Virus record (IMG/VR): IMGVR_UViG_3300045988_182734
Coordinates: 1 to 64,000 of that record
DNA from: a virus
Length of the DNA: 64,000 bases
Direction: 5' to 3' (one strand)
Positions 7,686 through 50,468 of this stretch are shown here, piece by piece. The position numbers and the translations under genes were made by a program. The stretch's first letter is position 1, and each line of letters opens with the position of its first letter. The notes below the pieces were generated by a model. That model did no database searches and was not told where the DNA came from. It saw only the letters and a list, made by a program, of their open reading frames with translations.

Positions 7686-7990
7686 GTCAACAACCCCGCC
7701 TAAACCGGTTCGCCGGTTATAGACGGGGCTTGCGGGGCAACCTGTAAGCCCAGTTGATTAGCCTAAGCCCATTGCTCCGGCAGTGGGGAAAACTACGTTG
7801 TGTACTAATAATATAGGCACCTTATCCATGCTCCACAAGTGGTGAGCTCTGCAGGCGTTTCGTTAAACATCTCCGAGGGGAGGAGAAGTGCGAGCGTCAT
7901 GTCGAAAGGCTAAAACAGTGCATAACATTGGCGAAGTGGACCACAGGACGCAAGTCCTGACTTATAGTTTTATTACTATTTTACGAATGG
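7686..7990 (+). ncRNA. Conserved ~310-nt structured 5' leader element, copy 1 (upstream of flotillin)
   Basis: About 85% identical to 17060-17420. Nested hairpins CCCCGCCTA[AACCGGTTCGCCGGTT]ATAG(A/G)CGGGG. GNRA hairpin CAGGACGCAAGTCCTG covaries with copy 2. Confidence 0.45.
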
Positions 7991-22894: not shown

Positions 22895-23045
22895 TAAAAA
22901 CAAGCCGGGAAAACCCACGACTTTAGTCGTGGAATGAAATACTCTCACGGATGGGGCACCATGCCATTACCGAGAGGCGTAAGACTGGGTCAGCCAGCGG
23001 CCTCGTTGAAGTAGAATCCCACGATTTTAATCGTGGGAGTGTGTC
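22895..23045 (+). mobile_element. Miniature IS200/IS605-like derivative (LE-like hairpin CCACGACT-tta-AGTCGTGG plus RE-like hairpin TCCCACGATT-tt-AATCGTGGGA), no transposase
   Basis: 5' part ~80% identical to the 47686-47725 region upstream of tnpB. 3' hairpin identical to 876-897. Confidence 0.4.
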
Positions 23046-23091
23046 AAAGAAACAACGACAAAAATCAGCAATAAAGCGGGTGAAAAGTCTT

Positions 23092-24099
23092 ATGACGAAT
23101 ACAGAACTGAAAGCAATCCTCCAGCGTGAGGAATACGACTTTTTGCGAACAAACAAACATTTGGGAAGCAACATTTTATTCCTAACGGTTGGCGGCAGCC
23201 ATGCCTACGGGACCAATATTGAGGGTTCTGACATCGACATCCGTGGCGTGGCAGGTTCACCTGAAATCTTGGGGTTTAATCATTTCGAACAGACAATCAA
23301 CAATCAGACAGATACCGTCATCTATGCCGTCAACAAATTTGTCAGCTTGCTTGCACAAGGCAACCCAAACATCATCGAACTCCTCGGCAATGACCCAGAG
23401 CTATATGTGGACATGACGCCGGAAGGTCAAATGCTGCTTGATAATAGGAACCTGTTCTTGACGCGGCACATTGCCTACAGCTACGGCGGTTTTGCGAATG
23501 ACCAGCTCAGACGCTTGCAGATGGGGCTCCTTCGCAACGGAGTCTCGCCGGAGGCACTCAAGAATAAATTCGAGAAGAGGAGCCTGGAACGGTCAATTGC
23601 CGGATGGGGCAAGGATGATATTTTCGAAATCTCCATCAGTGAGGATACAGATGAAGAAGGCAAACATCCGCTCCTGATTTCTGGCAGCTTGAACGATTAT
23701 CCAGTCACCTCTCTAAAGTCGCTGCTAAAGAGTCTGACTACGACCATCGACCAGTATGAGCAGCCGCAGCATCCGAAAGCACAAAAAGATGCTGCCCACA
23801 TCAACAAACACGCGATGCACATTGTGCGGTTGTACTACACGGCGTTCGATATTCTGGAAAAAGGCGAGATTATCACTCACCGAGACAAGGAACGCGAGGA
23901 ACTGTTGGCGATTCGCAACGGCAAGTACCTGCGTGAAGACGGGTCGTACGCACCCGAATTCTTTGAGTTTGTTGATGCGCTCGAAAAGAGATTTCAGTAT
24001 GATGTGAAGAAGACTGCGCTTCCTGCAAAGCCAGACTGTGGGAAGATTGAAGAACTGTTGGTAGAAATCAATAAGTCGTATCTGCGACGCGTTTTTTGA
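23092..24099 (+). CDS. Pol-beta-superfamily nucleotidyltransferase domain protein
   Basis: Motif LFLTVGGSHAYGTNIEGSDIDI (hG[GS]...[DE]hD). The upstream part of the 22951 ORF is repeat DNA. Confidence 0.65.
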   Translation: MTNTELKAILQREEYDFLRTNKHLGSNILFLTVGGSHAYGTNIEGSDIDIRGVAGSPEILGFNHFEQTINNQTDTVIYAVNKFVSLLAQGNPNIIELLGNDPELYVDMTPEGQMLLDNRNLFLTRHIAYSYGGFANDQLRRLQMGLLRNGVSPEALKNKFEKRSLERSIAGWGKDDIFEISISEDTDEEGKHPLLISGSLNDYPVTSLKSLLKSLTTTIDQYEQPQHPKAQKDAAHINKHAMHIVRLYYTAFDILEKGEIITHRDKEREELLAIRNGKYLREDGSYAPEFFEFVDALEKRFQYDVKKTALPAKPDCGKIEELLVEINKSYLRRVF

Positions 24100-30955: not shown

Positions 30956-32116
30956 ATGAAATTCAAACACAATCCATTTCGGAGCACGGCGGCAATCATC
31001 GCTGCGCTCTTTGCACTCAGCTTCACCGGCTGCGGTCAGAGTCCGATAATCTCGGAATGTCCATCCAGTATCGGGGTTGTCTCGGAAAGCGCTGCAAGCA
31101 GCGAGCAGACAACTGGCGGTTCGGTGGACGGCAGCTTTACGATTCACTTTATAGACGTAGGGCAGGCGGATTCCGCCCTTATCACCTGCGACGGCCACAC
31201 AATGCTTATTGATGGCGGCAATGTCGATGATTCTAACCTCTTATACTCTGTTATGCAGCGAGAAACCGATGGACACCTGGATTATGTCGTTGGGACTCAC
31301 GCGCACGAAGACCACATCGGCGGCTTGTCTGGTGCTTTTGAAGCCGTTACTGCGGACATGACTCTATGCCCTGTGACAGAATACGACAGCAAGGCTTTTC
31401 GGAACTTTGCAAGCCACGCGGAACAAAAAGGCGGAGGCATCACGATACCGGATGTGGGTGAAACCTACACTCTGGGGGAAGCGGAATTCACGATAGTTGG
31501 TGTTAATTCTGTTCCCGATGATACGAACAATGCATCGATTGTTCTGCGCATCGTTTATGGGGATACTTCGTTCCTCTTTACTGGTGATGCTGAACAGGAA
31601 GCCGAAGGTGTGATACTTGCATCGGGACAAGACATTCAGTCAACAGTTCTGAAAGTAGGTCATCACGGCTCAAGCACATCTACCTCAGAGGCTTTTCTGG
31701 ACGCAGTGAATCCGACCTATGCTGTGATTTCCTGTGGGGCAGGGAACAACTATGGCCACCCGCATCAGGAAACACTCGACAAGCTGCAAAACAAGGGTGT
31801 TGAGGTTTATCGCACAGACCTGTTGGGCGATATCTATTGTACCTCGGATGGCAAAGAGGTAAGTTTCACTACCGGAGAATATCATGATGAGAATCGGATT
31901 GAAGCGGGTTCTGCTGCAAATTCCGAGGATGAACAGGACAATGCCTCGCTTGTCATAGAAGAAACATACGTTTTGAACACAAGTACCATGAAGTTTCACA
32001 AACCCGATTGCTCTGTAGTCGAGTCCATGAGTCAAAAGAATAGAATCGACTATATGGGGCCCCGCGATGAGCTCATCCAGGAAGGGTATTCGGCGTGCGG
32101 GATTTGCAAACCATAA
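30956..32116 (+). CDS. Lipoprotein with metallo-beta-lactamase fold (ComEC-C-like) and C-terminal Cys-containing domain
   Basis: RBS AAAGGAG. Lipobox FALSFTGC. Motif VVGTHAHEDHIGGL. C-terminal HKPDC...CGIC. Confidence 0.75.
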   Translation: MKFKHNPFRSTAAIIAALFALSFTGCGQSPIISECPSSIGVVSESAASSEQTTGGSVDGSFTIHFIDVGQADSALITCDGHTMLIDGGNVDDSNLLYSVMQRETDGHLDYVVGTHAHEDHIGGLSGAFEAVTADMTLCPVTEYDSKAFRNFASHAEQKGGGITIPDVGETYTLGEAEFTIVGVNSVPDDTNNASIVLRIVYGDTSFLFTGDAEQEAEGVILASGQDIQSTVLKVGHHGSSTSTSEAFLDAVNPTYAVISCGAGNNYGHPHQETLDKLQNKGVEVYRTDLLGDIYCTSDGKEVSFTTGEYHDENRIEAGSAANSEDEQDNASLVIEETYVLNTSTMKFHKPDCSVVESMSQKNRIDYMGPRDELIQEGYSACGICKP

Positions 32117-43497: not shown

Positions 43498-43526
43498 TTG
43501 ACCGGATACCACATATATGGTATAAT
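43498..43526 (+). promoter_or_regulatory. Consensus sigma-70-type promoter TTGACC-17-TATAAT (different from the conserved family)
   Basis: Perfect hexamers. Drives a ~265-nt leader into the tRNA array. Confidence 0.6.
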
Positions 43527-43791
43527 ACAATTGTTCTCAGGAAGAGAAACGGCTCCTGAGACATCAAGGTTTTCCTTTCCCCAATCTTGGTCGCATGGCT
43601 TCATTTGAGCTGACACAGGTGAAGCGTGAAAATCATCCGTTTCATAGTAATATCCTTCCTTTCATACCTCTTTATTTCCCATTTGGCGCGGGTAACTCCG
43701 CGCCAGCCGTCCAAGCAAACAGCCTCCACGTGGTGGACGGTGGGCAACAGATGTTTCCGTGTTCCGGGCATCTGGCTAATGTTTGTATTTG

Positions 43792-43867
43792 CTGGTTTAG
43801 CTCAGCTGGTAGAGCAACTGATTTGTAATCAGTCGGTCATCGGTTCAAGTCCGATTTCCAGCTCCAG
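43792..43867 (+). tRNA. tRNA-Thr (anticodon TGT)
   Basis: Cloverleaf with D-arm TAGCTCAGCTGGTAGAGCA, anticodon loop TTTGTAA, T-loop TTCAAGT, CCA encoded. Two U-U mismatches at the base of the acceptor stem. Confidence 0.65.
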
Positions 43868-44340
43868 ACGCTATCCGTTGGATGTATCGAAATCACATGA
43901 TACGATGCTATACACAACATCTGGCGGACAGCATGCCACCCATTAAGGCGGCCTCCTCGTGGCGGGTGGCGGACAGCGGCTCTTGCGGCTGCTGACGAAT
44001 GTCTTAGAAGCATGCAAACGTACGAGCATCCCCGTCAAGTCGGGGCGCATCCAGACGCGACACAGCCGTAAAGGCGAGATTGCTGCACGGCAACTGGTAA
44101 GTTTCGCCGCAGTCTCACACACAGCCCAACGACAACCGTTAACCCGATTTGACAGGGAATCAACGACAGGGCTCAAAATTTGAAGTTGACCAACACCCAA
44201 GCGCTTTCTTGGATTCTCGCGTATCGTCAACGATGAGGTTCGCAAGATTGTCAGATGGTGTGAAGATGACATCCGGGGATGACGACCTACTAAACGGATG
44301 TCATGGCGGGGCTAAGTGAGGGTTCACCCGCAATCTTATG

Positions 44341-44415
44341 CAGGTATCGTATAACGGCTAATACTCCGCCCCTCCAAGGCGGAGACGCGGGTTCGACCCC
44401 CGCTACTTGCTCCAC
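44341..44415 (+). tRNA. tRNA-Gly (anticodon TCC) with non-canonical C33
   Basis: Very similar overall to E. coli tRNA-Gly(UCC). 7-bp anticodon stem with loop CCTCCAA (C at position 33 instead of U). Confidence 0.6.
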
Positions 44416-44690
44416 ACGTCGCAGTCACCGTACGCCACGACGTTAAACTTGGTGAGCATGGTCCACTTGTGGTCCGCTGTCGAATTGCTAATGGACAGCC
44501 TCAAAACGAATAGGCAAACAGGTGCTGTGCCTGAAAGTATTCGAAAGTCCCGGTGTTAGTCGCGAATAAGACCGGAAAACGGTGAAGAGGGTACAATACA
44601 GAATCTATCGGCGTGGCTACCGAATGGTGCTGGACGCGGGGTTGGCTTCCTCGCTGAAGGGGTGATAACCAGCATAAAACACCCTGCCGT

Positions 44691-44766
44691 GCTAGTGTAG
44701 CTCAGTTGGTAGAGCAGCTGATTCGTAATCAGCAGGCCGTCAGTTCAAATCTGACTATTAGCCCCA
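44691..44766 (+). tRNA. tRNA-Thr (anticodon CGT)
   Basis: Anticodon stem GCTGA/TCAGC, loop TTCGTAA, T-loop TTCAAAT, CCA encoded. Confidence 0.75.
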
Positions 44767-44796
44767 TTACCCGATGAAACAATAAATAGAAAGGAG

Positions 44797-45189
44797 ATGA
44801 AACTTATGGAACAGGCAATTATCAATGTTGAAGGTACGACTACCATAGAAACCGCTGCAGCGGCAAAAAAGCTGATTGAAATGTTTGGCAACCGGAACAT
44901 CCGCGCCATCGCTGTCAACCGTGTAAACGACAAGAGCGACGAGGTCATTGTTGAACTCGATTTCGTTCCCGGTTTGGCACCGCATCTGCACGGCTTCACG
45001 CTTCAGGTTAATGGCTTGACCTGTGGTTATGCTGGTACTGGTCCTTCCAATCTGTATGAAGTCCTGCAGGCGGCTGGCGTGAGTGAAGCTCAGGTAGCAC
45101 GCGAGGACATCACTCAGAAGAGCACAAAATCCATTCCCCTGCGCCTGGAACGCGCCGTGACTCAGTACGGTGACTTCCAGTTTGCGTAA
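44797..45189 (+). CDS. Hypothetical protein (130 aa)
   Basis: RBS AAAGGAG. Followed by hairpin GGCGGGCTTGACCCGCC. Confidence 0.6.
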   Translation: MKLMEQAIINVEGTTTIETAAAAKKLIEMFGNRNIRAIAVNRVNDKSDEVIVELDFVPGLAPHLHGFTLQVNGLTCGYAGTGPSNLYEVLQAAGVSEAQVAREDITQKSTKSIPLRLERAVTQYGDFQFA

Positions 45190-45219
45190 CGCTATTTGGC
45201 GGGCTTGACCCGCCATCAT

Positions 45220-45295
45220 GGAGGGATAGCTTAGCTGGATAAAGCACCTGCCGCAAAGCAGGGTATCGATGGTTCGAGGCCATCTCCCTTCTCCA
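45220..45295 (+). tRNA. tRNA-like gene with aberrant anticodon loop (6-nt CGCAAA or 8-nt CCGCAAAG); isotype unassigned
   Basis: Good acceptor (GGAGGGA/TCCCTTC), D-arm (GCTT AGCTGGATA AAGC), T-arm (GATGG TTCGAGG CCATC) and CCA, but the anticodon arm cannot form a 5+7+5 structure. Confidence 0.4.
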
Positions 45296-45654
45296 TCCAG
45301 ACACCCTTTCGCTTCCTTTCGCCAAAGGTATCTGGGGTATTGTACTGCATTACGTGTAGTACGGCCAATCAGGCGCGGAACTCCGAAACCATACCACGAA
45401 GAATTTTATCCTCTCCGCGCAGCATGGACATGCGATTTTACGGGGATGAATTCAAACCGAAATTGTGTCGAGTGGCGAAGACGGTTGCGGCACTGGCGAA
45501 GCACATATCTGCTTCGTCAACCATCCATGAGAAAGCCTCCACGTGGCAGATGGTGGGCAACGCAGCAATGCTGCGGCTGATTTCTTTCAAACCGGTATCT
45601 GAATAAATGCAGATAAATAGACGAAAAAATCAAAAAAGCAAAGGAGTACACAGC

Positions 45655-46773
45655 ATGAGTAATCAGAAAATCATCAAAGCAATCGCAGGGATTGCAGCAG
45701 CCGGTATGATGGCAACTTGTCTGCCTGTCGCAGCATTCGCAGCCACCGGCGACACCTATCATTTCTCTTTCAGCAACGGTTCTTCCCAGGACCTGGCTCC
45801 GGGCGGCTCTATGACGTTCCCGGCAAGCCAGTATGACTACGGTTACTGGATTACCCTGCAGGGCCACGGCGGCTACACCTACAACTACTATCCCGGCGAC
45901 ACTCTGCCGTACGATGCAGTTGACCAGTGGTTCACCGCTGACGGCATCACTTCCTGCTATGCGGCCGAAGGTAATCCGCGTTCCATCACCATCAACTATC
46001 AGATTGACGGTAACACTGTGCTGACCGAAACTGACACCGCCACTTTCCCCGGCAGCGTTGATGGTCAGAGCGTTGAAGCCTGGACCACCGATTCCGGCGA
46101 TACTTACACCGCGTCCAGCAAGAGCCTGAACCATGACCGCCTGTTCTACTACCTGGGCGATGACATTCACGACAATGTCCTGACCCTGAAAGCCACTACT
46201 GCATCCACTCCCGATGACGGCAAGGATGACAACAAGGGCGATGACAAGGGCGATGTCACCAACCCTGACGATAAGGGCGACAATACCGGCGACAGCGGCA
46301 CCACCACTCCCGATGACAAGGGCGACGTAGTGGCCCCCGATAAGGACAACACCGGTAAGGATAACACTTCTACCGGCTCCAACAAGGGCAACGGTACTAC
46401 CACTACTCCGACCGCTCCTCGCAAAAACGTTGAAGTCTCTGAGCACGGTGAAATTGCCGCCGCCATTGCCAATGGCACCTGGGGCAATGAGTACACCGTC
46501 TGCACCAGCTGTGGCTATCACAACTGGACCCGCAAGGGTAACGTTTACGTCTGTGACCATTGTGGTCACGAAGTCCTGACTGTCAAGGGCGCTGATGGCG
46601 TCAAGGGTTATGCTGGCACTCTGGCTGGCAATGAACCCCAGTACGCTTCTACCTCTGAAGCTCAGGCTGCTGCCGAAAAGCGTGAAGCTGCTTATGCCGC
46701 TTCTATCGCTGCTCTGCAGGCACAGGTTGCCGCTCGTGAAGCTGCTTATGCCGCTTCCCTGGGCATCCACTAA
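45655..46773 (+). CDS. Secreted protein with Asp/Gly/Lys-rich linker and C-terminal Cys4 ribbon-like motif
   Basis: RBS AAAGGAG. Signal peptide ending AAFAATG. CTSCGYHNW...CDHCGHE. Confidence 0.7.
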   Translation: MSNQKIIKAIAGIAAAGMMATCLPVAAFAATGDTYHFSFSNGSSQDLAPGGSMTFPASQYDYGYWITLQGHGGYTYNYYPGDTLPYDAVDQWFTADGITSCYAAEGNPRSITINYQIDGNTVLTETDTATFPGSVDGQSVEAWTTDSGDTYTASSKSLNHDRLFYYLGDDIHDNVLTLKATTASTPDDGKDDNKGDDKGDVTNPDDKGDNTGDSGTTTPDDKGDVVAPDKDNTGKDNTSTGSNKGNGTTTTPTAPRKNVEVSEHGEIAAAIANGTWGNEYTVCTSCGYHNWTRKGNVYVCDHCGHEVLTVKGADGVKGYAGTLAGNEPQYASTSEAQAAAEKREAAYAASIAALQAQVAAREAAYAASLGIH

Positions 46774-46814
46774 TTTGCCATCCTCTGACGATATCCGATA
46801 ATTTTCTCCTTGCT

Positions 46815-46848
46815 GTGGGGCGGGGCTTCGGCTCCGCCCCATCCTTTT
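46815..46848 (+). terminator. Intrinsic terminator
   Basis: GGGGCGGGGC-ttcg-GCTCCGCCCC then ATCCTTTTTT. Confidence 0.65.
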
Positions 46849-46850
46849 TT

Positions 46851-46939
46851 GGTCAGGTGTCCGAGCGGTTTAAGGAACTGGTCTTGAAAACCAGCGACGC
46901 CAAAAACGTCCGTGGGTTCGAATCCCACTCTGACCGCCA
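46851..46939 (+). tRNA. tRNA-Ser (anticodon TGA)
   Basis: Type II tRNA with long variable arm, anticodon loop CTTGAAA, G73, CCA encoded. Confidence 0.8.
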
Positions 46940-46941
46940 TG

Positions 46942-46975
46942 TTTGCCGGGGCTTCCCGGCTTTTTGTTTTTTTGT
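46942..46975 (+). terminator. Intrinsic terminator
   Basis: GCCGGGGC-ttc-CCGGC then TTTTTGTTTTTTT. Confidence 0.6.
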
Positions 46976-47007
46976 AAGTGACACAAGGAAACAGATTGCT
47001 GTATTGA

Positions 47008-47664
47008 ATGAGGCAATGTATACTAAAGAAAAAGGATAAGGCAGGAAAGGACTATTTCCGAGCACACGTTGCGGCTGTAGCGGAAGGTGTAAAAGGGGAC
47101 CCTGTTGCTGAAACTGTGGCATTTCTGCATGATACTGTCGAAGATACGTCCATCACAATAGAAGACATCAGAACGGGGTTTCCAAAAGAAGTTGCTGACG
47201 CTGTAAGTGCGTTGACCCATAGCAAGGGTATATCGTACGCTGAATATCTTTGGTATATTCAGCAAAATTCTATTGCTGTCAAAGTAAAGCTCTCGGACCT
47301 GCGCAGCAATATGGACTTAACCAGGCTCCCTCACGCTCCAACCAAAAAAGACGCGGAAAGAACCAGAAAATACAAGCGGACATATACGATTCTATCGTCG
47401 GCGAATGGTGTAAACGCTATCAATCCGTATGCGCTGTACGACTACTTGCTGGCAAGAAACTGGAGTGTTGATAGGATAAGCACAAGGACACCCGTTCTGG
47501 AAGCACCAGGCGGCTATGCTGAAATCATGGTGCCCTTCGACCTGGCTTTGGCTGACTACGAGCCCAAGGTGGCTAACGCTTTAGGCGCGTTGTGCTCGTA
47601 TGAGGGCATACCGCTCTCGGATGCGATAGCACGGATTGCGGCTTGGAAACCAGACATGCACTGA
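47008..47664 (+). CDS. HD-domain protein, RelA/SpoT-type (p)ppGpp hydrolase-like (small alarmone hydrolase candidate)
   Basis: AFLHDTVEDT matches the SpoT/Mesh1 HD signature LHDxVEDT. Start uncertain. Confidence 0.5.
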   Translation: MRQCILKKKDKAGKDYFRAHVAAVAEGVKGDPVAETVAFLHDTVEDTSITIEDIRTGFPKEVADAVSALTHSKGISYAEYLWYIQQNSIAVKVKLSDLRSNMDLTRLPHAPTKKDAERTRKYKRTYTILSSANGVNAINPYALYDYLLARNWSVDRISTRTPVLEAPGGYAEIMVPFDLALADYEPKVANALGALCSYEGIPLSDAIARIAAWKPDMH

Positions 47665-47752
47665 GTACAAACCTGATATTGTAAACGTCAGCCGGGAAAA
47701 CCCACGACTAAAGCCGTTGGATGAAAGGCATTCAAGTAAAATAAAAAAAGTT

Positions 47753-47783
47753 GCTGTCTATCTTCGGATAGGCAGCTTTTTTG
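47753..47783 (+). terminator. Intrinsic terminator
   Basis: GCTGTCTATC-ttcg-GATAGGCAGC then TTTTTT. Confidence 0.6.
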
Positions 47784-47784
47784 G

Positions 47785-47812
47785 TTGCGTTAATGTGCGA
47801 AATGGATAAATT
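47785..47812 (+). promoter_or_regulatory. Conserved-family promoter (TTGCGT-16-TAAATT)
   Basis: Spacer TAATGTGCGAAATGGA. Upstream of tnpB. Confidence 0.45.
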
Positions 47813-47837
47813 AAATAATAGAAGGTGGTGATAAGCA

Positions 47838-48983
47838 ATGCCTATGCAAAAACTAAATAGAGCAATAAAATATCGTGCATATCCTACACCTGAGCAGCAG
47901 GTGTTGCTTTCTAAAACCTTCGGCTGCGTTCGCTTTGTCTGGAATCATATGCTGACGGACGCGCGGCAATTTTTGAATGAAGCAGGGACGTTTTTTATTC
48001 CAACTCCTGCTAAATACAAAAAAGAGTTTCCGTTTCTGAAAGAAGTGGATAGCCTTGCACTCGCTAATGCACAGCTTGATTTGAAAGAAGCACGTAAGAA
48101 GCATCGAGAGAACCCTAAAAGCTGTGGCGCTCCCAAACTCAAGAGTAAGCGCAAAAGTAAAATGTCTTATACAACAAACACTCATTCATACAAAACGAAT
48201 GATGGCCATGTTGTACATACAATCGCGCTTGGATATGACTCCATCAGGTTACCAAAAATTGGATGGGTAAAAATCAACAAGCATCGTGAGCCGGAAGCCA
48301 ACTGGGTGCTGAAAAGTGCTACCGTAAGCTGTACCCGCAGCGGCAAATACTTTATTTCGCTGCTGTACGAGTTTGAGAAAGACATTCAGTCCATTAAGCC
48401 TACAAAAGAGACTTCTCTTGGGTTGGATTACTCTTCTCACGACTTCTATGTTGACAGCAACGGCAATGTGGCCAACTATCCAAGATTCTACCGTCAGAGT
48501 GAAGCAAAACTTGCAAGGGCACAGCGTAGGCTATCGCGTATGCAGTTTGGCTCCCATCACTATGACAAACAGCTTTATAGAGCTCGAGTCCTTCAGGAAC
48601 ATGTTGTCAACCAGCGCAAGAACTTCTGCCATACGGTAAGTACTGCGATAGCCAAACAGTATGATGCCGTATTTGTAGAAGATATCAATTTGCGCGGTTT
48701 GGCTGGTTCTCTGAAATTAGGGAAATCCACTAACGACAATGGCTTCGGTATGTTTCGCACGATGTTGGAGTATAAGCTTGCATCGCAGGGAAAGACCTTT
48801 GCCAAAATCGATAAGTGGTATCCTTCCAGCAAAACTTGCAGCGTGTGCGGCTTTATAAAAGATGACCTCACACTTGCTGACCGCAGCTGGACATGCAGTG
48901 CTTGTGGAACCACACACAACCGTGACCACAATGCTGCCATTAACATTCGCACTGTAGGATTATTATGGCTCTATCCCGCGTAG
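47838..48983 (+). CDS. tnpB: TnpB (IS200/IS605-family OrfB, RuvC-like RNA-guided nuclease)
   Basis: YRAYPTPEQQVLLSKTFGCVRFVWN N-terminus, zinc finger CSVCG...CSACG, RuvC-III HNRDHNAAINI. Confidence 0.9.
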   Translation: MPMQKLNRAIKYRAYPTPEQQVLLSKTFGCVRFVWNHMLTDARQFLNEAGTFFIPTPAKYKKEFPFLKEVDSLALANAQLDLKEARKKHRENPKSCGAPKLKSKRKSKMSYTTNTHSYKTNDGHVVHTIALGYDSIRLPKIGWVKINKHREPEANWVLKSATVSCTRSGKYFISLLYEFEKDIQSIKPTKETSLGLDYSSHDFYVDSNGNVANYPRFYRQSEAKLARAQRRLSRMQFGSHHYDKQLYRARVLQEHVVNQRKNFCHTVSTAIAKQYDAVFVEDINLRGLAGSLKLGKSTNDNGFGMFRTMLEYKLASQGKTFAKIDKWYPSSKTCSVCGFIKDDLTLADRSWTCSACGTTHNRDHNAAINIRTVGLLWLYPA

Positions 48984-49200
48984 TCCATTCCACCCCCGCT
49001 ATGCCGCTTGCAACGGCGGTGAAAGCATACTGTACTCGGTCGCACGGACGGAAACCGTGCCTAACAGTCCGTCGAGTATGAATTTATGGAGTCCTGCGGG
49101 ACTTCAAGCCCCCACGTTAAGGTGGGGGTAGTTGACTCCGTTTGTCGCAGGTTCAAATCCTGTACAACCCGCCATATGCTCCAGTGGCGAAACTGGCAAA
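48984..49200 (+). ncRNA. Candidate omega-RNA / right-end structured RNA of the TnpB element, with tRNA-like T-arm and CCA-like 3' end
   Basis: Long-range stem GGAGTC..GACTCC enclosing perfect hairpin CCCCCAC-gttaag-GTGGGGG, followed by GCAGGTTCAAATCCTGTACAACCCGCCA. Confidence 0.3.
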
Positions 49201-49239
49201 CGCGACGGTTTTAAGTCCCCCGGCCGGAGCATTTATCAT

Positions 49240-49315
49240 AGGGGTATAGCTCAAGTGGTAGAGCAGCGGTCTCCAAAACCGCTTGTTGCATGTTCGAGTC
49301 GTGTTACCCCTGCCA
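49240..49315 (+). tRNA. tRNA-Trp (anticodon CCA)
   Basis: Acceptor AGGGGTA/TACCCCT, anticodon loop CTCCAAA, T-loop TTCGAGT, G73, CCA encoded. Confidence 0.8.
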
Positions 49316-49320
49316 CAATA

Positions 49321-49352
49321 AGAAAAGCCGTCCTCACATAAGAGGCGGCTTT
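49321..49352 (+). terminator. Intrinsic terminator
   Basis: AAGCCGTCCTC-acataa-GAGGCGGCTT then TTTGTTTTG. Confidence 0.5.
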
Positions 49353-49684
49353 TTGTTTTGAAGAGTATACAGACCAAAAAACTAAACCACAAGTTGATTG
49401 CGAACTTGCGAAAACATGGTATAATAATATCAGAACGAAACGAAAGGAGATACCCCAAAATGCTGTGCAACACTGTTAATGTCATGTCGTATGAGTATAG
49501 TTACGAATATTCTGAGTTCATGTCCTTTGAACGCAGTTTTATTTCTCATACTCCTCGACAGGCAAAAACAGACCATGTACAGATGCGGTGCGTCTTCTAA
49601 GCGATAACTGCATGTCATAGCTGCTTGTCGAGATTTCGGCAGGCAGCTTTTTTGTTGCCTGCAATACAGAAAGGCAGCAAGAAA

Positions 49685-49906
49685 ATGAACGTTCCTACTA
49701 TCGATATTCAGAAAACTGGTGCCAACATTAAGACGCTGCGAAAAGCAGCAGGTATCAAGGTGAAAGATGTGGCGGATACACTCGGCGTATCCACGCAGGC
49801 AGTTGCCAAATGGCAAGCTGGAACCGCGCTTCCAACCATTGATAACCTTGTGATATTGGCAGCGATGCTGGATACCAAGATAGATGACATCTTAGTCATC
49901 GCATAA
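49685..49906 (+). CDS. XRE-family HTH transcriptional regulator (73 aa)
   Basis: LRKAAGIKVKDVADTLGVSTQAVAKWQAG Cro/C1-type HTH. Start at internal ATG of the 49625 ORF. Confidence 0.7.
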   Translation: MNVPTIDIQKTGANIKTLRKAAGIKVKDVADTLGVSTQAVAKWQAGTALPTIDNLVILAAMLDTKIDDILVIA

Positions 49907-49933
49907 TCCCCGCCGCATGATGCGGCATCATAT

Positions 49934-50010
49934 GGCCTGCTCGACGAATAGGGTAAGTCATCAGTTTCTCAGACTGAAGGTTGTGGGTTCGACTCCCACG
50001 CAGGTCACCA
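49934..50010 (+). tRNA. tRNA-Glu (anticodon CTC)
   Basis: Acceptor GGCCTGC/GCAGGTC, anticodon stem TCAGT/ACTGA, loop TTCTCAG, T-loop TTCGACT, CCA encoded. Confidence 0.65.
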
Positions 50011-50013
50011 TAT

Positions 50014-50089
50014 GCTTCTGTAGCTCAGTTGGTAGAGCAGTGGTCTGAAGAACCGCGTGCAGTTGGTTCAATTCCAACCGGAAGCACCA
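50014..50089 (+). tRNA. tRNA-Phe (anticodon GAA)
   Basis: Acceptor GCTTCTG/CGGAAGC, anticodon loop CTGAAGA, T-loop TTCAATT, CCA encoded. Confidence 0.8.
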
Positions 50090-50092
50090 TAT

Positions 50093-50177
50093 GCGTCGGT
50101 ATGCAAGTGGATAAAGCAGGCAGTCTGTAAAACTGTTCCGTTACGGTTCGCTGGTTCGAATCCAGTCCGACACACCA
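50093..50177 (+). tRNA. tRNA-Tyr (anticodon GTA)
   Basis: Type II with long variable arm. Anticodon stem GCAGT/ACTGT, loop CTGTAAA. One C-A mismatch at acceptor pair 2-71. Confidence 0.75.
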
Positions 50178-50181
50178 ATAT

Positions 50182-50255
50182 GGCCCCTTCGACAAATTGG
50201 TCCAAGTCACCACGCTTTCACCGTGGAGTTAGCAGTTCGAGTCTGCTAGGGGTCA
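50182..50255 (+). tRNA. tRNA-Glu (anticodon TTC), CCA not encoded
   Basis: GGCCCCTTCG... start as in bacterial tRNA-Glu. Anticodon stem CCACG/CGTGG, loop CTTTCAC, T-loop TTCGAGT. Confidence 0.7.
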
Positions 50256-50287
50256 CTACGTCGCACCTACGTTAAAAGGTGCATTAT

Positions 50288-50377
50288 GCAGAGGTCGCCT
50301 AACGGTAGGGCAGCAGCTTGCTAAGCTGCCGTCGCGGAAATCGCGGCATGTGAGTTCGAATCTCACCCTCTGCGCCA
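50288..50377 (+). tRNA. tRNA-Ser (anticodon GCT)
   Basis: Type II. Acceptor GCAGAGG/CCTCTGC, anticodon stem GCAGC/GCTGC, loop TTGCTAA, G73, CCA encoded. Confidence 0.8.
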
Positions 50378-50380
50378 TCT

Positions 50381-50468
50381 GCTTGCTTGTTCGAGTGGTT
50401 GATGAAATCGGTCCAGAAAACCGACGATGGGAGACTGTCCGAAGGTTCGAATCCTTCAGCAAGCGCCA
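50381..50468 (+). tRNA. tRNA-Ser-like (type II, G73) with non-canonical anticodon loop CCAGAAA (C33; nominal anticodon AGA)
   Basis: Acceptor GCTTGCT/AGCAAGC, Ser-type D-arm GATGAAATCGG, stem TCGGT/ACCGA, long variable arm, T-loop TTCGAAT, CCA encoded. Confidence 0.55.

Follow-up and report, generated by a model that had tools for sequence, protein, structure and literature searches.

The 64,000-nucleotide (nt) stretch of DNA analyzed here, positions 1 to 64,000 of the IMG/VR virus record IMGVR_UViG_3300045988_182734 (referred to below as the window), carries the tRNA island of a large uncultivated phage. The explanation that we consider likely to be correct as a whole is that self-cleaving ribozymes of the hepatitis delta virus (HDV)-like type and RNase P would cut polycistronic precursors from this island into discrete RNAs, that its noncanonical tRNAs are maintained, and that its gene array is fluid. 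Our confidence is high in the anatomy of the island and moderate in the mechanism. The phage is probably gut derived, probably a jumbo phage, and probably infects a host belonging to the Bacillota.

In the 64-kb window, ARAGORN called exactly 12 tRNA genes; these all lie on the + strand between 43791 and 50468, and their anticodons agree with the 12-member list given in a first-pass annotation made from the sequence alone. The Rfam tRNA model matched all 12: eleven exceeded the gathering score in a whole-window scan (47 to 68 bits, E values of 1e-7 to 1e-12), and the twelfth (45220-45292), recovered in a regional scan, scored 46.4 bits, the gathering score being 29.

43791-43866, + strand: tRNA-Thr(UGU), with U6·U67 and U7·U66, CCA encoded (ARAGORN, Rfam, cloverleaf drawing)
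44340-44414, + strand: tRNA-Gly(UCC), with C32 and C33, loop CCTCCAA (ARAGORN, cloverleaf drawing)
44691-44766, + strand: tRNA-Thr(CGU), canonical (ARAGORN; Rfam, 67.7 bits)
45220-45295, + strand: tRNA 4, well-formed cloverleaf; the anticodon loop has 6 nt (CGCAAA), and the discriminator is U73 (ARAGORN, Rfam, cloverleaf drawing)
46851-46939, + strand: tRNA-Ser(UGA), with terminator-like hairpins on both sides (ARAGORN, Rfam)
49240-49315, + strand: tRNA-Trp(CCA), followed by a terminator-like hairpin (ARAGORN, Rfam)
49934-50468, + strand: tight cluster, comprising the six genes below
49934-50010, + strand: tRNA-Glu(CUC)
50014-50089, + strand: tRNA-Phe
50093-50177, + strand: tRNA-Tyr, with C2·A71
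50182-50256, + strand: tRNA-Glu(UUC), without CCA
50288-50377, + strand: tRNA-Ser(GCU)
50381-50468, + strand: tRNA-Ser(AGA), with C33 and A34

The array had been described as tightly packed, which holds for the last six genes (49934-50468) but not for the first six, which lie 276 to 2300 nt apart. Similarly, TAT(G) spacers had been reported throughout the last six; the five spacers are TAT, TAT, ATAT, ∼31 nt, and TCT, and not all are of this type. The structural departures that had been flagged are borne out. The cloverleaf drawing of Thr(tgt) contains the U-U acceptor pairs, C33 is found in the loops of Gly(tcc) (CCTCCAA) and Ser(aga) (CCAGAAA), and the loop of tRNA 4 has 6 nt, which opening of the closing C-G pair would enlarge to 8 nt. 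Further features had not been listed: a C2·A71 mismatch in the cloverleaf drawing of Tyr, and two tRNA remnants, the 3' half of an Asn(GUU) gene (49137-49174) and a truncated Leu(UAA) gene (49178-49232). Glu(ttc) is the sole gene of the 12 without an encoded CCA.

Relatives of the island were collected by means of an open reading frame (ORF) that lies within it.

44797-45189, + strand: 130-amino-acid (aa) ORF, function unassigned, the anchor for relatives; no Pfam or PHROG match, and no record on exact look-up

Queried with this ORF, IMG/VR returned 78 viral contigs of up to 222 kb (81 to 99% identity), every one of which carries the same tRNA array in the same gene order. A scan with the ribozyme core pattern added 120 further viral loci on contigs of up to 389 kb, many of them from additional contigs of this phage group that likewise carry the array. 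In all, the array is common to >100 IMG/VR contigs. The resulting 198 related loci (individual loci are designated by L numbers) formed the comparison set for tRNA loops and anticodons. The usual array in these relatives comprises 18 to 21 genes, in the order Thr(tgt), Gly(tcc), Thr(cgt), the 6-nt-loop tRNA, Ser(tga), Gln or Glu, Lys, Asn, Leu(caa), Asn, Leu(taa), Trp, Glu, Phe, Tyr, Glu, Ser(gct), and Ser(aga). PHROG-matching genes flank the array, and ORFs of the window match PHROG and Pfam families for a UvrD-like helicase, an EcoRI-type methylase, an AAA ATPase, helix-turn-helix (HTH) proteins, and an RlaP nucleotidyltransferase, matches consistent with an early or middle region of a phage. 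These data uphold the earlier claim that the array is virus borne. There is no close phage in GenBank: megablast of the island gave just 41- to 61-nt tRNA patches, and tblastn of the helicase against GenBank phages gave a single 63-aa patch in Staphylococcus jumbo phages and no annotated relative. A weak hint at the host comes from a TnpB protein encoded in the island, whose nearest genomic relatives are 54 to 57% identical and belong to metagenome-assembled genomes of Oscillospiraceae and Clostridia.

The island contains three P4-containing HDV-like ribozymes that the first-pass annotation had missed and for which self-cleavage is predicted.

43706-43787, + strand: R1, HDV-like ribozyme, predicted cleavage 5' of G43706, catalytic C 43776 (RF02682, 49 bits; family model, 72 bits; covariation)
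43935-44007, + strand: R2, HDV-like ribozyme, catalytic C 43996 (RF02682, 34.1 bits, below the gathering score; P1, P2, P3, and P1.1 intact)
45520-45589, + strand: R3, HDV-like ribozyme, catalytic C 45577 (RF02682, 41.1 bits; family model, 69.7 bits)

The matches to RF02682, the HDV ribozyme of Faecalibacterium prausnitzii, span 43706-43786, 43935-44006, and 45520-45587, respectively. A family model built from ten ribozyme paralogs, together with an nhmmer profile, found exactly three ribozymes in the window, all within the island. In the window and its 78 anchor-ORF relatives (79 sequences), nhmmer returned 244 ribozyme matches, all on the + strand, which is that of the tRNAs. The nested double pseudoknot was evaluated in 51 distinct sequences with 500 shuffles: 88.9% of cells are paired and 20 of 24 pairs covary, a result that none of the 500 shuffles reached, while slid controls drop to 35 to 55% paired. 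By helix, the paired fraction and the covarying pairs are 98% and 7/7 for P1, 77% and 7/7 for P2, 99% and 1/3 for P3, 98% and 1/2 for P1.1, and 82% and 4/5 for P4. Each of the three ribozymes of the window has the catalytic C of J4/2. The Rfam regional scan detected no other ribozyme class in the island. Separately, a scan with the F. prausnitzii-type core pattern (CCTCT...) yielded 15 loci that were set aside: 12 were chance matches with a poor P1, and the other 3 represent one 5' untranslated region (UTR) ribozyme unrelated to tRNAs.

The position of the ribozymes relative to the tRNAs follows a pattern. R1 ends 4 nt 5' of tRNA-Thr(UGU) and has no tRNA upstream; R2 is separated by 68 nt from Thr(UGU) on its 5' side and by 332 nt from Gly(UCC) on its 3' side; R3 follows tRNA 4 at a distance of 224 nt, and 65 nt separate its 3' end from a start codon at 45655. 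Distances between the 3' end of a ribozyme and the tRNA that follows have a bimodal distribution, with 0 to 10 nt in 84 of 241 cases and >100 nt in the rest. The tRNAs found directly 3' of ribozymes are Thr(tgt), Asn, Met, and Ser(tga), and the wider set of loci gives the same partners. In the opposite direction, the cleavage site lies within 10 nt of the 3' end of a preceding tRNA in 1 of 172 close-relative cases. In other clades, a few ribozymes do begin 1 to 2 nt after the CCA of Gly(UCC) (L059/L175, L152, and L159) or Leu(CAA) (L156); those at L059 8996-9067, L175 829-900, L152 2456-2527, and L156 1771-1847 contain P4, and the preceding tRNA encodes CCA.

A stable hairpin immediately precedes each ribozyme of the window.

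43684-43705, + strand: 9-bp hairpin that extends up to and includes position -1 of the R1 cleavage site (z = -3.8)
43870-43932, + strand: long hairpin that ends 2 nt before the R2 cleavage site (z = -3.5)
45494-45519, + strand: 10-bp hairpin that ends at position -1 of the R3 cleavage site (z = -2.4)

Across the phage group, a hairpin lies within 1 nt of the cleavage site in 48 of 64 distinct groups of upstream sequence, and its sequence varies between ribozyme paralogs. Where a tRNA stands directly 5' of a ribozyme, its acceptor stem takes the place of the hairpin. No account of this hairpin-ribozyme-tRNA arrangement emerged from a full-text literature search that combined HDV-like or self-cleaving ribozymes with tRNA and phage.

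Two long spacers flanking tRNA-Gly, likewise absent from the first-pass annotation, are candidates for new structured RNA families.

44008-44339, + strand: S1, candidate structured noncoding RNA from R2 to the 5' end of tRNA-Gly (covariation; no Rfam family)
44415-44690, + strand: S2, candidate structured noncoding RNA from tRNA-Gly to tRNA-Thr(CGU) (covariation; no Rfam family)

Both are conserved at 77 to 100% across clades, above the neighboring ORF. Compensatory changes occur in 15 of 89 pairs of S1 (shuffle mean, 5.9) and in 10 of 71 pairs of S2 (shuffle mean, 4.4), and in neither case did any of 500 shuffles reach the observed value. Coding was considered for both spacers and rejected, there being no conserved frame and no 3-base periodicity, and no Rfam family matched a 701-nt stretch covering them even at E values of ≤10. 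The ends of S1 and S2 would be set by ribozyme R2 and RNase P.

Putative transcription signals and protein-coding genes are interspersed with these RNAs.

43498-43526, + strand: promoter-like site TTGACC-17-TATAAT (extended -10, TG) that agrees with the consensus at 11 of 12 positions and ranks first in the region; consensus match only
45655-46773, + strand: 372-aa ORF with a hydrophobic N terminus (signal peptide judged by eye), no family match
46815-46842: terminator-like hairpin after the 372-aa ORF
47008-47664, + strand: HD-domain phosphohydrolase ORF (Pfam HD_4, phrog_990)
49398-49906, + strand: block 5' of the tight cluster, with a promoter-like site (49398-49425), a small ORF, a terminator-like hairpin (49619-49648), and a 73-aa HTH_3 ORF (49685-49906)

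The promoter-like site at 43498-43526 is likely the start of the first transcription unit, and the product of the 372-aa ORF is probably secreted. Terminator-like hairpins were found at 46815, 46945, 47753, and 49619, and two more were recognized by eye after tRNA-Trp and after the tight cluster. The extended -10 promoter-like sites at 43517-43526 and 49416-49425 share TGGTATAAT, which may be an early or middle promoter motif of the phage.

We report the genes, folds, conservation, and geometry above as observed, and from them we propose a model of processing. Promoters and terminators would split the island into several transcription units, the first extending from the promoter at ∼43498 to the terminator at ∼46842. 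The three HDV-like ribozymes would cleave co-transcriptionally at their own 5' ends. The upstream product would then end in a flush hairpin bearing a 2',3'-cyclic phosphate, an arrangement that may protect the 3' end, and the downstream product would start with a 5'-OH buried in P1 of a compact pseudoknot. Host RNase P would cut at every tRNA 5' end. The predicted products are a leader of ∼173 nt, free ribozymes, tRNAs, an R2-S1 RNA, an S2 RNA (S1 and S2 being ∼300 nt each), and an insulated mRNA capped by R3. During infection, the phage tRNAs would supplement or replace those of the host.

The noncanonical features of the tRNAs (C33, loss of U33, and U·U pairs) appear to be inherited, selectively maintained traits of the phage group rather than signs of decay. 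All 102 copies of tRNA 4 have the loop CGCAAA, and 98 of them are identical over their full length. All 87 copies of Ser(aga) share the loop CCAGAAA, on an anticodon stem that occurs in four compensated versions (TCGGT/ACCGA, CTGGT/ACCAG, GCGGT/ACCGC, and CCGGT/ACCGG), and the Gly(tcc) loop CCTCCAA is found in 111 of 130 copies over four stems, with CTTCCAA in sister clades. Such conservation of loops over varying, compensated stems points to purifying selection. Moreover, C33 predominates in Asn(gtt) (CCGTTAA), is common in Met(cat), and occurs sporadically in Thr, Glu, and Ser(tga); its presence in several isoacceptors of related loci suggests that abandoning U33 is a recurrent trait of this phage group. 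The first-pass annotation had called the deviations typical of viral or decaying tRNAs; in light of these counts, the viral part of that statement stands, and decay of the odd members does not. The U·U pairs of Thr(tgt) are retained in the close clade, and these pairs are canonical in a divergent clade (L074-L077). Genuine decay is apparent in places that had not been listed, namely, the Asn half and Leu remnant beside TnpB and the Tyr C2·A71 mismatch, which is private to the window (0 of 198 loci; T2-A71 in 75).

The most unusual member, tRNA 4, departs from a canonical tRNA in lacking a 7-nt loop with U33, and the Rfam alignment places a single deletion at position 33; in the cloverleaf drawing, G18G19, T54-Psi55-C56, the 7-bp acceptor stem, and CCA are all present. 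Elsewhere in the group, the loop CTGCAAA is found in a single canonical Cys(gca) gene; removal of U33 from this loop gives that of tRNA 4. U73, a discriminator also found in tRNA-Cys, together with GCA suggests a Cys identity, although U73 is also carried by Thr(tgt) and Gly(tcc) of the window. In the divergent clade L074-L077, the place of tRNA 4 is occupied by a canonical Ala(tgc). Two related loci contain a Ser-type tRNA (GGATAGGTGTCCGAG...) whose 6-nt anticodon loop CTTAAA may be read as Ser(UGA) minus one base or as a UUA anticodon without U33.

Comparison with relatives also suggests that the array is fluid, through recombination between ribozyme copies, single-base anticodon switches, and insertion of a TnpB element that the first-pass annotation had also missed.

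47838-49136, + strand: TnpB gene (47838-48983) and 3' noncoding right end (Pfam; comparison with relatives)
49137-49174, + strand: tRNA-Asn(GUU) remnant, position 39 to CCA (39-76), abutting the right end of the insertion sequence (IS)
49178-49232, + strand: truncated tRNA-Leu(UAA), lacking ∼21 nt of the variable and T arms; not called by ARAGORN, intact in L016

The encoded protein has the HTH_OrfB_IS605, OrfB_IS605, and Cas12f1-like TNB domains (Pfam) and is of the IS200/IS605 type. In comparison with L042, L016, L065, and L055, the element has taken the place of Gln, Lys, Asn, Leu(caa), and half (the 5' part) of a second Asn. Comparison with intact Asn genes places the right-end junction at 49136|49137; since the right end abuts the Asn anticodon loop, the guide of the presumed omega-RNA would be tRNA sequence. 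The TnpB-Asn-Leu configuration (47838-49239) is also present in L016, L065, and L055. Ribozyme R2 pairs the 68-nt upstream gap of an Asn-leader ribozyme with the 332-nt downstream gap of a Gly-upstream ribozyme, which are separate ribozymes in L223 and L022, and this combination of gaps suggests that Asn and Met were lost when ribozyme copies recombined. Close relatives also differ by single-base anticodon switches on one tRNA body: Gln(ttg)/Glu(ttc), Leu(taa)/"Ile"(tat), and a ttc/ctc swap between Glu bodies. Examples of switches are seen in L003, L004, L032, and L072 in the array block between Ser(tga) and Trp, and the Glu body GGCCCCTTCGACAA... carries ttc in the window and ctc in most relatives.

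Several points weigh against the explanation proposed here. R1 alone exceeds the RF02682 gathering score of 44 bits, R2 (34.1) and R3 (41.1) falling below it, and pair 7 of the R3 P1 helix is C·A in the window (relatives of R3 show compensated P1 variants). Most relatives are >90% identical, so that counts of instances are not counts of independent events. The covariation of S1 and S2 comes from 8 to 9 sequences, with structures predicted from the same alignments. A ribozyme located 5' of a tRNA makes no mature tRNA end itself, and its benefit is a matter of conjecture. In Bacillota, 5'-OH ends can direct RNAs to RNase J1, as known from work on the glmS ribozyme; a protective effect would thus depend on burial of the 5' nucleotide in P1. 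Finally, with regard to codon compensation, the genes of the window show no preference for the codons that the array would serve (relative synonymous codon usage, 0.6 to 1.3).

We weighed these points along with other explanations. That the array is a conserved host chromosomal tRNA operon and not part of a mobile element deserves almost no credence, given its presence on >100 IMG/VR viral contigs amid PHROG-matching genes; nothing in favor of this view was found, the scan of bacterial genomes having covered TnpB. It is also improbable that the ribozymes are theta-type processors of tRNA 3' ends such as those described by Kienbeck et al. 2024. Both sets comprise HDV-like ribozymes within tRNA arrays of gut-type phages, and the few relatives with predicted cleavage 1 to 2 nt past the CCA end of a Gly(UCC) or Leu(CAA) tRNA have the geometry that such processing calls for. 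Theta ribozymes, however, are minimal, lack P4, have the cleavage site at the tRNA 3' end, and accompany tRNAs without CCA (PMC10879173), and CCA is encoded in 4.5% of tRNAs in the published set (PMC10879173). The island has none of three theta hallmarks, a minimal P4-less fold, cleavage within ∼5 nt of a tRNA 3' end, and mostly CCA-less tRNAs: P4 is present and covaries; the cleavage sites of the window lie 68 and 224 nt after the nearest upstream tRNA, with none upstream of R1, and just 1 of 172 close-relative cases falls within 10 nt; and 11 of 12 tRNAs encode CCA.

For the tRNAs themselves, the alternative that the odd members are decaying pseudo-tRNAs left over in a viral array is unlikely but has some substance. 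Some decay is real, since TnpB left an Asn half and a truncated Leu and the C2·A71 mismatch of Tyr occurs in none of the related loci, and older work on loop-size mutants leads one not to expect efficient decoding by a 6-nt anticodon loop. Yet the flagged features are the most conserved parts, the D-loop/T-loop tertiary nucleotides of tRNA 4 are intact, and tRNA 4 is at least as invariant as its canonical neighbors. If the odd members are indeed maintained, the position 33 changes (C33 or deletion of U33) could be adaptations against a host anticodon nuclease, an idea that we find doubtful but worth entertaining. Van den Berg et al. 2023 proposed that anticodon-loop changes in the tRNAs of other phages evade host tRNases (PMC10264068). 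Consistent with this, replacement of U33 has arisen repeatedly and independently in Gly, Ser, Asn, and Met, with occasional cases in Thr, Glu, and Ser(UGA); sister clades retain U33 versions; and the window encodes an RlaP-family RNA repair nucleotidyltransferase (22951-24099). On the other hand, both anticodon nucleases checked for dependence on position 33 tolerate C33: any pyrimidine at this position suffices for colicin E5 (PMC1635277), and gamma-toxin is unaffected by U33C (PMC2275089). Evasion of these two enzymes by C33 was accordingly rejected. We consider it highly improbable that tRNA 4 is a recoding tRNA that acts in frameshifting or quadruplet decoding (in its 8-nt loop form) or as a doublet decoder for phage genes. 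Its loop can be drawn with 6 or 8 nt, and the Ser-type tRNA with the loop CTTAAA is a second 6-nt-loop tRNA in the group; against this, neither the window nor the 198 related loci contain a stop-codon (suppressor) anticodon, the ORFs of the window are long and uninterrupted under genetic code 11 with no frameshifted genes noticed, and a literature search on 6-nt anticodon loops found nothing.

We therefore favor ribozyme- and RNase P-dependent processing of a fluid island with maintained tRNAs, and on this basis we advance a more specific proposal as a tentative possibility. Taken jointly, this would be a lineage of large gut phages with natural hairpin-ribozyme and tRNA/RNase P punctuation that frees tRNAs, two new ∼300-nt RNAs, and insulated mRNAs, and in which the systematic loss of U33 (to C or by deletion) would serve either as a counter to a U33-dependent host tRNase or in unconventional decoding.

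Other parts of the window contain features that may relate to RNA metabolism.

22951-24099, + strand: RlaP-family nucleotidyltransferase ("RNA repair pathway DNA polymerase beta family")
30956-32116, + strand: metallo-beta-lactamase-fold protein, "tail" in one PHROG family
7686-7946, + strand: HEARO RNA (IscB omega-RNA family), 91 bits, above the gathering score
8004-9647, + strand: ORF 3' of HEARO, encoding an SPFH/Band-7/flotillin protein and no IscB

The nucleotidyltransferase could relate to the cyclic-phosphate and 5'-OH ends left by ribozymes or tRNases. It was the only such candidate in a Pfam scan of 30 window ORFs, which contained neither RtcB nor a CCA-adding enzyme. The metallo-beta-lactamase fold is that of RNase Z and RNase J, and a role of the second protein in RNA processing is possible. 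A function of the HEARO RNA as an IscB guide was rejected, since the downstream ORF encodes an SPFH/flotillin protein; this copy is an orphan.

Phage tRNA arrays and tRNA-linked HDV-like ribozymes are each known, and their combination in this locus has not previously been described. Full-length ribozymes with hairpins of their own, placed as tRNA leaders or 5' UTR elements, widen the contexts and candidate functions of bacterial HDV-like ribozymes, and they offer precise cleavage coordinates that can be tested. U33, the U-turn nucleotide, is a near-universal rule of tRNAs; its replacement or deletion in several tRNAs, conserved in >100 independent assemblies, constitutes a natural test of its essentiality. 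The many compact ribozyme paralogs, if they cleave co-transcriptionally as predicted from their folds, would be usable as insulator parts, and S1 and S2 are candidate new RNA families.

Among known systems, the best Rfam family for the ribozymes is that of drz-Fpra-1 (RF02682), with which they share a nearly identical core of L3 and J1/4 (CCUC.CGUGG...GGGCAAC). The original drz-Fpra-1 is located in the 5' UTR upstream of glmM, and R3 likewise lies in a 5' UTR. Unlike drz-Fpra-1, the ribozymes described here occur as multiple paralogs per phage genome and are interleaved with tRNAs, and R1 alone reaches the gathering score of the family. The island resembles the classical tRNA clusters of T4, T5, mycobacteriophages, and large gut phages in its co-oriented genes, very short spacers, location in a large phage genome, and presumable reliance on host RNase P; it differs from them in the intervening ribozymes, structured RNAs, ORFs, and insertion sequence and in the systematic departures from U33. 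Like theta ribozymes, the ribozymes of the island are HDV-like and predicted to self-cleave, stand in sense orientation in tRNA regions of IMG/VR viral contigs, and in a few relatives follow a tRNA. In contrast to theta ribozymes, they have a covarying P4, are located 5' of tRNAs (by 3 to 7 nt), structured RNAs, or mRNA, and have a dedicated hairpin rather than a tRNA 5' of the cleavage site, in an array in which CCA is encoded and suppressor tRNAs and recoding are absent. The conserved, non-host-like anticodon loops recall the phage tRNAs discussed by van den Berg et al. 2023, with the difference that the change here affects position 33 (C or deleted), outside the nuclease specificities checked. 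Finally, engineered cassettes such as RiboJ insulators, polycistronic tRNA-gRNA arrays, and the "tRNA array method" (PMC12381190) similarly use ribozymes and tRNA/RNase P sites to split one transcript into defined RNAs; those cassettes are synthetic, and we propose that the island would be their natural counterpart.

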